DNA from: Escherichia coli
GTDB lineage: Bacteria > Pseudomonadota > Gammaproteobacteria > Enterobacterales > Enterobacteriaceae
NCBI RefSeq assembly: GCF_045037415.1
Contig: NZ_CP173438.1
Strand: one strand, 5' to 3'
Length of the DNA stretch: 64,000 bases
How positions within the stretch are numbered: the first letter of the stretch is position 1; the number at the start of each line of letters is the position of its first letter. The notes below the pieces were generated by a model. It was not told where the DNA came from and did not search any database. It saw only the letters and a program-made list of their open reading frames with translations. Position numbers and translations under genes: made by a program. This document shows, piece by piece, positions 6,209 to 9,640 of the stretch.

Positions 6209-7729
6209 ATGTCTTCTCATCCGTATGTCACCCAGCAAAATACCCCGCTGGCGGACGACACCACTCTGATGTCCACTACCGATCTGCAAAGCTATATCAC
6301 TCATGCTAATGACACTTTTGTGCAGGTGAGCGGCTATACCTTGCAGGAGTTACAGGGGCAACCGCACAACATGGTGCGTCACCCGGATATGCCAAAAGCG
6401 GCGTTTGCGGATATGTGGTTCACCCTGAAAAAAGGGGAACCCTGGAGCGGCATCGTGAAAAATCGCCGCAAAAATGGCGACCATTATTGGGTGCGGGCCA
6501 ATGCGGTACCGATGGTGCGCGAGGGAAAAATCAGTGGCTATATGTCGATTCGTACCCGGGCGACGGATGAAGAGATCGCGGCGGTGGAGCCGCTGTACAA
6601 AGCGCTGAATGCCGGACGTACCGGTAAGCGTATTCATAAAGGCCTGGTGGTGCGTAAAGGCTGGCTGGGTAAACTGCCTTCATTACCGCTTCGCTGGCGG
6701 GCGCGTGGAGTGATGACCCTGATGTTTATCGTGCTGGCGGCCATGCTCTGGTTTGTTGCTGCCCCGGTGGTGACGTATATCTTCTGTGCATTAGTGATGT
6801 TGTTGGGAAATGCCTGTTTTGAATGGCAAATTGTACGTCCGATAGAAAATGTCGCCAGCCAGGCACTGAAAGTGGCGACCGGAGAACGTAATAGTGTTGA
6901 GCATCTGAAGCGCAGCGATGAGCTGGGGCTGACATTACGCGCGGTAGGGCAGCTTGGCCTGATGTGCCGTTGGCTAATTAATGATGTCTCAAGCCAGGTG
7001 TCCAGTGTCAGAAACGGCAGTGAGACGCTGGCGAAAGGCACCGATGAACTGAACGAACATACCCAGCAGACAGTTGATAACGTTCAGCAAACGGTGGCGA
7101 CCATGAACCAAATGGCGGCGTCGGTGAAACAGAACTCTGCCACGGCGTCGGCTGCCGATAAACTTTCTATCACCGCCAGTAATGCGGCAGTGCAGGGCGG
7201 GGAGGCGATGACTACGGTGATCAAGACAATGGACGATATTGCCGACAGTACCCAGCGCATTGGCACCATTACTTCGCTGATTAACGATATTGCGTTTCAG
7301 ACCAATATTCTGGCCCTGAATGCGGCGGTGGAAGCGGCGCGTGCCGGCGAACAGGGCAAAGGTTTTGCAGTGGTGGCGGGGGAAGTGCGTCATTTAGCCA
7401 GCCGCAGCGCCAATGCTGCCAACGATATTCGCAAGCTGATTGATGCCAGTGCTGATAAGGTGCAATCTGGTTCGCAGCAGGTACACGCCGCCGGACGGAC
7501 GATGGAAGATATTGTGGCGCAGGTAAAAAACGTCACCCAGTTGATAGCTCAGATTAGCCATTCAACGCTGGAACAGGCCGATGGGCTTTCCAGCCTGACC
7601 CGTGCAGTGGATGAGCTTAACCTGATCACCCAGAAAAACGCCGAGTTAGTGGAAGAGAGTGCGCAGGCGTCGGCGATGGTGAAACACCGCGCCAGCCGAC
7701 TGGAAGACGCGGTGACGGTGCTGCATTAA
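6209..7729 (+). CDS. aer: Aerotaxis receptor (PAS-FAD sensor fused to MCP signalling domain)
   Basis: 506 aa ORF; N-terminal PAS region, central hydrophobic hairpin, C-terminal methyl-accepting domain ([26 protein letters not shown]). Confidence 0.92.
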
Positions 7730-7734
7730 TCGGT

Positions 7735-7832
7735 ATGCCGGATCCGGCGGTTGGAGCACAATGCCTGATGCGATGCTGGCGCATCTTATCAGGCCTACGG
7801 GGTGTGTAGGGTACGCCGCATCCGGCAATCGG
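7735..7832. repeat. REP/BIME cluster (two inverted REP units) downstream of aer
   Basis: GCCTGATGCGATGCTGGCGCATCTTATCAGGCCTAC and GTAGGGTACGCCGCATCCGGCA palindromic units typical of enterobacterial REP elements. Confidence 0.7.
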
Positions 7833-7835
7833 TGA

Positions 7836-8459
7836 TTAATCCAGTTGGGTAATATCAAAAGCGGCGCGGTCGATCACCGCAATGATCTTTTTTATTTGTG
7901 CATCAGTGATATCGCTCTGGTTGACGCATAAATCCAGCACCGCTTTAAAATTATCCAGCGCCCGCTTCATTTGCGGGTTCTGGCGCAGCGCAGCGCCAAC
8001 GCAACGCGCTTTGATGCGTTCTTCAATCATCTCTACCTGTTCGCGGTTTTCTTCCAGCCACTGCGCGCCTTGTTCGGTCAGCGCAATCTGCTTCTTACCA
8101 CCTTCCTCTTCGCGGATGGTAATCAGCGACTGCTCCTGCAGAAAATCCAGCGTCGGGTAGATGACGCCCGGGCTTGGGGTGTAATTCCCCTGGGTCAGAT
8201 TTTCAATCGCTTTAATCAACTCGTAACCGTGGCTGTCATCGCGCGAGAGAATATCCAGAATCACCAGACGCAATTCACCGTGACCAAAGAAACGTTGCCG
8301 ACGACCGCCGCCGCGACCGTGGCGACCACCGCAGCATTGACCGTGTTCATGCTGGTGACCGTGTCCGCAGTGCTCGTGTTCTGACTTCTCACCTTTGCAG
8401 CAGCCCTCATGGCGTGGCTGGCCTTCATGTTTACAACACCCTTCGTGATGATGGCTCAT
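7836..8459 (-). CDS. yqjI: PadR-family metal-responsive repressor with His/Cys-rich N-terminal tail
   Basis: 207 aa ORF beginning MSHHHEGCCKHEGQPRHEGCCKGEKSEHEHCGHGHQHEHGQCCGG followed by a PadR-like winged helix region; divergent from yqjH. Confidence 0.85.
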   Translation of the reverse strand: MSHHHEGCCKHEGQPRHEGCCKGEKSEHEHCGHGHQHEHGQCCGGRHGRGGGRRQRFFGHGELRLVILDILSRDDSHGYELIKAIENLTQGNYTPSPGVIYPTLDFLQEQSLITIREEEGGKKQIALTEQGAQWLEENREQVEMIEERIKARCVGAALRQNPQMKRALDNFKAVLDLCVNQSDITDAQIKKIIAVIDRAAFDITQLD

Positions 8460-8479
8460 ATCAGCCTCCTTTTGCTTAA

Positions 8480-8723
8480 TTAGATATATCTAATTTATAT
8501 CTGATATGAGCATTACTGCAAGTACAAAAATGATTTTTAAACGCAGGTTTACTCAACATGTAGGCCGGATAAGGCGTTCACGCCGCATCCGGCATTGAGC
8601 AATGATGCTTGATAAGAGGTTGCGCGTCTTATCAGACTACAGATATATCAGTGCTACAAATCACTTGCATTTATCATGATTAACAATCATTATCATTTGT
8701 GGAATTTATTTAGATATATCTGA
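8480..8723. promoter_or_regulatory. Divergent yqjI/yqjH control region: three AGATATATC operator-like motifs, embedded REP unit, Fur box
   Basis: Perfect palindrome TTAGATATATCTAA near 8480-8493, related copies near 8639-8650 and 8710-8723; Fur-box-like ATGATTAACAATCATTATCATT near 8676-8697; REP sequence GTAGGCCGGATAAGGCGTTCACGCCGCATCCGGCA near 8560-8594. Confidence 0.6.
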
Positions 8724-8746
8724 TTACCATCACGAAGGCGATAACA

Positions 8747-9511
8747 ATGAATAACACCCCCCGCTACCCACAGCGCGTTCGCAATGATCTGCGCTTCCGT
8801 GAACTGACTGTGCTACGCGTTGAGCGCATCAGCGCCGGTTTTCAGCGCATTGTCCTCGGCGGCGAGGCGCTGGACGGTTTTACATCGCGCGGCTTTGACG
8901 ATCACAGCAAACTCTTCTTTCCTCAACCTGACGCTCACTTTGTGCCGCCAACGGTAACGGAAGAGGGCATCGTCTGGCCGGAAGGATCACGCCCACCGTC
9001 GCGTGACTATACGCCGCTGTATGACGAACTACGCCATGAACTGGCGATTGATTTTTTTATTCACGACGGTGGGGTCGCCAGCGGCTGGGCGATGCAGGCG
9101 AAACCGGGCGATAAACTTACGGTGGCAGGTCCGCGCGGTTCGCTGGTGGTGCCGGAAGATTACGCGTATCAGCTGTATGTCTGCGATGAATCCGGAATGC
9201 CCGCACTGCGCCGCCGCCTGGAAACGTTGAGCAAACTTGCTGTTAAACCGCAAGTTAGTGCGCTGGTTAGCGTGCGGGATAACGCCTGTCAGGATTATCT
9301 CGCGCACCTTGATGGTTTTAATATCGAATGGCTGGCACATGATGAGCAGGCGGTAGATGCGCGTCTGGCGCAGATGCAAATCCCTGCCGATGATTACTTC
9401 ATCTGGATAACCGGCGAAGGCAAAGTCGTTAAGAATTTAAGCCGCCGCTTTGAAACGGAACAGTATGACCCACAGCGGGTACGTGCGGCGGCTTACTGGC
9501 ACGCAAAGTAA
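8747..9511 (+). CDS. yqjH: Siderophore-interacting protein / NADPH-dependent ferric-chelate reductase
   Basis: 254 aa ORF with FAD-binding and NAD(P)-binding ferredoxin-reductase-like halves; preceded by a Fur box. Confidence 0.85.
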   Translation: MNNTPRYPQRVRNDLRFRELTVLRVERISAGFQRIVLGGEALDGFTSRGFDDHSKLFFPQPDAHFVPPTVTEEGIVWPEGSRPPSRDYTPLYDELRHELAIDFFIHDGGVASGWAMQAKPGDKLTVAGPRGSLVVPEDYAYQLYVCDESGMPALRRRLETLSKLAVKPQVSALVSVRDNACQDYLAHLDGFNIEWLAHDEQAVDARLAQMQIPADDYFIWITGEGKVVKNLSRRFETEQYDPQRVRAAAYWHAK

Positions 9512-9564: not shown

Positions 9565-9640
9565 TGGTGGCCCCTGCTGGACTTGAACCAGCGACCAAGC
9601 GATTATGAGTCGCCTGCTCTAACCACTGAGCTAAGGGGCC
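9565..9640 (-). tRNA. ileX: tRNA-Ile2 (anticodon CAU, lysidine-modified) or elongator-type tRNA with CAU
   Basis: Reverse complement GGCCCCTTAGCTCAGTGGTTAGAGCAGGCGACTCATAATCGCTTGGTCGCTGGTTCAAGTCCAGCAGGGGCCACCA folds as a cloverleaf with 7-bp acceptor stem, CAT anticodon loop, TTCAAGT T-loop and encoded CCA. Confidence 0.9.

Follow-up and report, generated by a model that had tools for sequence, protein, structure and literature searches.

NfeR, the product of nfeR (formerly yqjI), is a PadR-family repressor of Escherichia coli whose reference studies are those of Wang, Wu and Outten (J Bacteriol 193:563, 2011), of Wang et al. (J Bacteriol 196:3199, 2014) and of Blahut et al. 2018. According to PMC7981267, which cites the first two of these, NfeR acts in E. 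coli as a repressor of nfeF, and the repression is lifted by nickel in excess. The same publication gives an expression of nfeF that is raised 85-fold upon deletion of nfeR in Klebsiella pneumoniae, as well as a lower virulence of the Klebsiella nfeR mutant in wax-moth larvae (PMC7981267). The name stands for "Nickel-responsive Fe-uptake Regulator", and the gene is induced under nickel stress (PMC9508795). NfeR connects nickel stress to the release of iron from siderophores.

The N-terminal tail of this protein, which is the subject of the present analysis, and its interpretation as a nickel sensor have reportedly been in print since 2011. The work of Wang and colleagues from that year is said to have found that YqjI binds inverted repeats in both promoters and that the binding of nickel or iron lowers its DNA binding in vitro, and Wang, Wu and Outten reportedly described its N-terminal extension as "similar to the Ni2+-binding C-terminal tail of SlyD". 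The primary papers reportedly regard the tail as the metal-binding part of YqjI, and conserved Cys residues are said, in the 2018 article of Blahut and colleagues from the same laboratory (J Inorg Biochem), to be needed for the nickel response. NikR and RcnR of E. coli respond to cellular nickel as well, and control metal homeostasis genes.

The nfeR locus and the fold of its product

The following features define the locus in the window, that is, in the whole stretch of 64,000 nucleotides of E. coli DNA that was analysed:

7836..8459, minus strand: nfeR (yqjI) coding sequence, 207 aa, PadR-family repressor (open reading frame, 100% identity and annotation)
8465..8471, minus strand: strong ribosome-binding site AAGGAGG, 5 nt upstream of the nfeR ATG, read directly from the sequence
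8747..9511, plus strand: nfeF (yqjH), NADPH-dependent ferric-chelate reductase, the regulated target (Pfam FAD_binding_9 and SIP, RefSeq annotation)

The initial annotation had taken the open reading frame at 7836-8459 for YqjI, an identification that is borne out by the 100% identity of its product to a protein named NfeR from Escherichia coli, by the nfeR annotation and by the divergent nfeF/yqjH gene. In current nomenclature yqjI is nfeR and yqjH is nfeF, and the RefSeq product names are "DNA-binding transcriptional regulator NfeR" and "NADPH-dependent ferric chelate reductase NfeF". Since AAGGAGG lies 5 nt before the ATG and the RefSeq nfeR entry, WP_000017999.1, has the same start codon as our reading frame, the tail is translated as part of NfeR. 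Transcribed divergently from nfeR, nfeF provides in the window the SIP-family neighbour by which the NfeR group is recognised. About 1.9 kb around nfeR match several E. coli chromosomes at 100% DNA identity, in which the annotated gene order is aer, nfeR, nfeF, a tRNA, mug and rpoD; the same 1.9-kb stretch, tail included, was found in 5422 of 5426 complete E. coli genomes.

Two neighbours of this pair deserve a brief mention. The aerotaxis receptor gene aer (6209-7729, plus strand), which encodes PAS, HAMP and MCP signalling domains, runs convergently to nfeR and shows no obvious connection with the tail described here. The tRNA gene at 9565-9640 (minus strand) is called tRNA-Met by ARAGORN, on account of its anticodon CAT, and tRNA-Ile by RefSeq, which is compatible with a tRNA of the ileX type, where the CAU anticodon undergoes modification to read AUA.

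Downstream of the tail, the protein is divided as follows:

8280..8318, minus strand: Gly/Arg-rich junction GRGGGRRQRFFGH, residues 48-60, nearly invariant
8079..8279, minus strand: PadR winged helix-turn-helix, residues 61-127 (PF03551, E 2.5e-15; AlphaFold2 pLDDT 94-98; Foldseek)
7845..8075, minus strand: C-terminal helical region, residues 129-205 (AlphaFold2 helices 129-137, 139-159, 162-181 and 186-205; pLDDT 85-98)

In the AlphaFold2 model of NfeR, a monomer built on 60 homologues, residues 1-55 have a pLDDT of 45-52 and no secondary structure, so that the tail is predicted to be disordered. Residues 57-207 are modelled with a pLDDT of 88-98 as three helices and a two-stranded wing followed by four helices, the winged helix being composed of helices 60-73, 78-88 and 97-109 and strands 113-117 and 123-127. 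The model thereby includes the C-terminal helices (129-205) through which PadR-family proteins dimerise. The Pfam match to PF03551 on residues 67-136 scores 56.6 bits against a gathering cut-off of 27. Nearly all of the top 50 Foldseek hits are PadR/LmrR structures, which match the winged-helix part only. The PDB holds no structure of NfeR itself, and the best sequence match there, the PadR protein 9qbc (E 6e-9), is confined to residues 61-140.

The His/Cys-rich tail and its variation among orthologues

The tail and its motifs are placed as follows:

8319..8459, minus strand: His/Cys-rich N-terminal tail, residues 1-47, with 12 His and 7 Cys (composition, motif positions and AlphaFold2 disorder)
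8430..8447, minus strand: first HEGCCK unit, residues 5-10, containing Cys8-Cys9
8394..8411, minus strand: second HEGCCK unit, residues 17-22, containing Cys20-Cys21
8343..8378, minus strand: HxH run HEHCGHGHQHEH, residues 28-39, containing Cys31
8331..8336, minus strand: Cys42-Cys43 pair, of which Cys43 matches the Cys that is most conserved in the tails of orthologues

Translated from the minus-strand reading frame, NfeR begins with MSHHHEGCCKHEGQPRHEGCCKGEKSEHEHCGHGHQHEHGQCCGGRHGRGGGRRQRFFGHGE. The initial annotation had described a His/Cys-rich N-terminus with repeated Cys-Cys pairs and HxH units ahead of the PadR fold and had quoted two strings from it, and this description is confirmed. 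The quoted strings occupy residues 3-13 (HHHEGCCKHEG) and 17-45 (HEGCCKGEKSEHEHCGHGHQHEHGQCCGG); His and Cys make up 40% of residues 1-47; there are three Cys-Cys pairs (8-9, 20-21 and 42-43, with a single Cys at 31) and HxH units at 3-5 and 28-39; and the PF03551 match starts after the tail. By residue, the 47 positions contain 26% His, 15% Cys and 19% Gly, while the remaining 147 residues that we counted include 1 His and 2 Cys. On a background of about 3.4% His+Cys, finding at least 19 such residues among 47 has a binomial probability of about 4e-16. Among the 54 open reading frames of at least 150 aa in the window, the NfeR tail has the highest His+Cys count in any 47 residues, 19 versus 11 for the next best.

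The two 8-codon repeats that carry HEGCCK have 16 of 24 nucleotides in common, and the six HEGCCK codons differ solely at synonymous sites, which indicates that the duplication is old and has been maintained at the peptide level. Tandem Repeats Finder detected no repeat in the tail DNA. Recent slippage was considered as the origin of the E. coli repeat and rejected, as the copies have diverged at the DNA level.

A side observation concerns five database homologues that start with MKA and are rich in Ala, Thr and Val. They correspond to the tail DNA read in another frame (8261-8428, minus strand) and joined downstream to the normal frame. They seem to result from frameshifts in the assemblies or from mistaken gene calls and do not appear to be real variants.

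We compared the tail with the C-terminal tail of SlyD, the sequence of which was confirmed by exact look-up as that of SLYD_ECOLI. The local alignment of NfeR residues 1-47 with SlyD residues 146-196 (His 29%, Cys 12%, Gly 31%) scores 95, versus 65 +/- 10 for composition-preserving shuffles, 9 of 2000 of which reach that score. At the sequence level, the likeness of the two tails therefore appears to exceed modestly what their shared composition would give, and it may reflect convergence rather than common descent. When phmmer was run with the tail alone against PDB sequences, no match was obtained even at E = 10, and literature searches for passages that discuss the tail, or that mention SlyD together with YqjI, returned nothing further.

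Considering this likeness, the tail might be regarded as a metal buffer, store or chaperone in the manner of the His-rich regions of SlyD, HypB or Hpn, holding or delivering nickel without any switching. Both the composition and the local alignment resemble the SlyD C-terminal tail, and several ions could bind to the 19 potential ligands. However, the abundance of a transcription factor is normally too low for the buffering of a metal pool, which counts against such a role. Furthermore, in the 85 distinct tails that we obtained from the 120 closest cluster representatives, the length up to the Arg pair ranges from about 9 to 90 residues, and this approximately ten-fold spread in length and ligand number is more in keeping with a sensor that can be tuned than with a fixed store. 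The tail is also part of a DNA-binding repressor, and nickel derepresses the target of this repressor (PMC7981267). Altogether, we consider a buffering or storage role highly improbable.

The same set of 85 tails bears on the function of the Cys residues. Cys-Cys pairs occur in 44 tails (Escherichia, Citrobacter and Salmonella) and isolated Cys only in 21 (Kluyvera, Phytobacter and Pseudocitrobacter), and 20 tails have no Cys at all (Leclercia, Lelliottia and relatives), those of Leclercia and Lelliottia being His-only. When the tails are anchored on the right, 44 of 85 have a Cys at position -7 relative to the Gly/Arg junction; this is Cys43 of E. coli, the most persistent Cys. Within Citrobacter, 2 to 5 units of the HEGCCKGEGH type are found depending on the species, in tails of up to 100 residues, one of which contains 25 His and 10 Cys, and the tail of Escherichia marmotae has one additional His-Glu.

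Seven Cys in 47 residues, in the regulator of an iron-mobilising reductase, might also be taken to mean that the Cys-Cys pairs sense redox conditions or hold an Fe-S cluster, the response being to oxidative stress or iron-sulfur status and not to nickel directly. Iron, too, reportedly lowered DNA binding in vitro in the 2011 work of Wang et al. A meta-analysis has yqjI among the genes induced by several stresses (PMC9501238). We nevertheless give this explanation very little credit, because nearly a quarter of the orthologue tails (the 20 above) lack Cys and only one Cys position is frequent among the tails (44 of 85), because the E. coli tail, itself predicted to be disordered, shows neither the CxxC nor the CxxxC spacing that cluster ligands typically have, and because the inducer reported in vivo is nickel.

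Further away, we compared 149 representatives at 30-45% identity. A tail of at least 15 residues is present in 142 of them and at least 4 His in the tail in 99, but only 20 have at least 2 Cys and only 9 a Cys-Cys pair. These distant tails are rich in Gly, Arg and His and differ greatly in make-up. Since 20 of the 85 closer tails lack Cys, and one orthologue with a tail of 19 residues and 3 His nevertheless has the reductase gene beside it, the Cys-Cys pairs are specific to certain lineages, and nickel sensing may not be universal. The junction behaves differently from the tail: GGGRRQRFFGHGE is kept in almost all of the 120 close homologues, R56 does not vary at all, and for R53, F58 and G61 the conservation stays at 90% or more down to about 35% identity. 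A low-complexity region that drifts and serves no specific function, attached to a junction and a PadR core that alone matter, would account for this variability in length and sequence and for a near-tailless orthologue that keeps its reductase neighbour, yet it is a most unlikely explanation considering that His enrichment persists in the distant representatives, that the synonymous-only differences between the HEGCCK units indicate selection on the peptide, that 4460 of 5422 E. coli genomes have tail DNA with an identity of 99% or more and that a nickel response has been reported in the literature.

Candidate operators and the reductase neighbour

The nfeR-nfeF intergenic region contains the following elements, none of which is assigned to a strand:

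8479..8494: palindrome ATTAGATATATCTAAT, candidate NfeR operator adjoining the nfeR start (pattern search)
8640..8651: CAGATATATCAG, a degenerate copy that departs from the 10-nt core at one position, inverted repeat I6, candidate middle site
8672..8700: Fur-box-like AT-rich stretch (ATCATGATTAACAATCATTATCATTTGT), between the candidate operators
8709..8724: palindrome TTTAGATATATCTGAT, located upstream of nfeF at about 25 nt from its start, candidate NfeR operator

The pattern TAGATATATCTRAT, to which the sites at 8479-8494 and 8709-8724 conform, has 5 matches in the window where 0.39 would be expected, and 4 of the 5 lie in this intergenic region. Its 10-nt core, AGATATATCT, is present with at most one mismatch in all ten loci that we fetched, and in each of them it is found only 30-230 nt upstream of the regulator gene, distant homologues without a reductase neighbour included. 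This distribution supports AGATATATCT as a candidate operator of the whole subfamily and a putative site of autoregulation. A short way upstream of the distant tail-bearing PadR homologues at 35-44% identity, the palindrome lies at 3913-3976 in L002, 3957-3966 in L004, 187-234 in L006 and 718-727 in L010. The neighbours there are not reductases: in L002, for example, a DUF2798 gene follows directly downstream, and L010 has a DUF3861 gene.

A divergent SIP reductase gene adjoins the regulator gene in three of the fetched loci, namely that of the His-only Lelliottia orthologue (L007), that of an orthologue whose tail has 19 residues with 3 His and no Cys (L008) and that of a 54%-identical homologue (L009). 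Since orthologues without Cys-Cys pairs keep both the reductase neighbour and the operator, these pairs would not be required for repression itself. In the neighbourhoods examined, the reductase gene is absent beside three homologues at 35-44% identity. The proposition that all tail-bearing homologues regulate a reductase was consequently rejected: the three distant homologues have as neighbours DUF2798, glyoxalase, and small multidrug-resistance-type and DUF3861 genes.

Regarding iron control, yqjH has been described as a member of the Fur regulon (PMC9501238, PMC9508795). In E. coli, the best match to the 19-nt Fur consensus within 8672-8700 deviates from it at 6 positions, a score that 20 sites in the window attain, so that the match is not significant alone; at 3 mismatches or fewer, the consensus had no match. 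As the E. coli site is thus no better than background, the case for Fur control of yqjH comes entirely from the literature. Both L007 and L008 have AAATGATAATGATTGC at the place that corresponds to the E. coli Fur-like stretch. In these Lelliottia-like loci, the Fur-box-like sequence upstream of the SIP gene, AAATGATAATGATTGCTAA, is much clearer than in E. coli.

A sigma-70 promoter scan of 7700-8800 gave no consensus match. REP-like GC-rich hairpins (GCCGGATAAGGCGT/ACGCCGCATCCGGC) are present at 8564-8593 and 7730-7835, the former inside the nfeR-nfeF regulatory region between the candidate operators and the others between aer and the 3' end of nfeR.

Taking tails and loci together, one may ask whether the metal-sensing tail is a fast-evolving modular region whose ligand set has been reshaped from genus to genus. 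Escherichia, Citrobacter and Salmonella tails have 2 to 5 HEGCCK-type units, those of Leclercia and Lelliottia only His, and in some orthologues there is hardly any tail. We advance this idea tentatively and consider it possible but rather doubtful. Its constant parts would be RRQRFF and the AGATATATCT operator, both common to a wider PadR subfamily that is unlinked to iron reductases. If the ligand set has been reshaped in this manner, the metal selectivity or sensitivity of the nfeF switch would differ between enteric genera, and the natural tail variants are candidates for swaps that probe metal selectivity. To our knowledge, this comparative picture has not been drawn before, with the reservation that the 2018 paper might cover part of it.

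Proposed mechanism and relation to known systems

We conclude that NfeR is most probably (roughly 85%) a PadR-family repressor whose disordered His/Cys-rich N-terminal extension acts as a metal sensor, mainly for nickel. The extreme composition, the predicted disorder and the modest likeness to SlyD, which come from the sequence and from a structural model, agree with metal sensing by the tail, albeit not as proof of it. The initial annotation had proposed that direct sensing of nickel or iron by the tail could relieve repression of yqjH, and published work shows such relief by excess nickel (PMC7981267). Its observation of the tail is correct and its interpretation supported, the tail being an ordinary feature of a characterised regulator.

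In the mechanism that we favour, NfeR without metal would bind the AGATATATCT-type palindromes of the nfeR-nfeF intergenic region and repress nfeR itself as well as nfeF, the divergently transcribed gene for the ferric-siderophore reductase. As cellular nickel rises, the tail would bind the metal through His imidazoles and Cys thiolates, as it would also bind iron in vitro, and metal-loaded NfeR would have a weaker hold on the DNA, which would lead to the derepression of nfeR and nfeF. Fur would add iron control to nfeF. The step from the tail to the DNA may involve the Arg-rich junction: located beside helix 1, RRQRFF may couple the metal state of the tail to the DNA contact, and it could link the metal-loaded tail to the DNA, for example by reaching like an arm into the operator's AT-rich centre. 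Both suggestions are our own.

The NfeR tail would represent a compact case of a metal sensor that is disordered, offers multiple ligands and is joined to a PadR repressor. What the present analysis adds is comparative and modest, in that it separates the constant elements of the system (the Arg-rich junction, the operator and the reductase neighbour) from the variable ones (the number of Cys and the length of the tail).

With respect to the characterised E. coli NfeR/YqjI, the locus in the window has the same protein sequence, the divergent nfeF/yqjH and, presumably, the intergenic inverted repeats; we see no difference apart from its belonging to another strain. B. subtilis PadR, L. lactis LmrR and the Brachyspira PadR 9qbc have the winged helix-turn-helix core in common with NfeR. 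However, these proteins lack a His/Cys-rich N-terminal extension, and the pocket in which they sense phenolic acids or drugs lies at the dimer interface, whereas NfeR has in addition about 55 residues of disordered tail and a C-terminal helical region of greater length. The nickel regulators NikR (ribbon-helix-helix and ACT domain) and RcnR (four-helix bundle) have folds unrelated to that of NfeR, and each has a defined, structured metal site in place of a disordered multi-ligand tail. The C-terminal nickel-binding tail of SlyD is rich in His, Cys and Gly like the NfeR tail and has GCCGG and HGHxHEHG-type stretches in common with it. The two tails differ in that SlyD has Asp and Gly where NfeR has Glu and Lys, and in their location, which is C-terminal on a prolyl isomerase/chaperone in SlyD and N-terminal on a DNA-binding repressor in NfeR.
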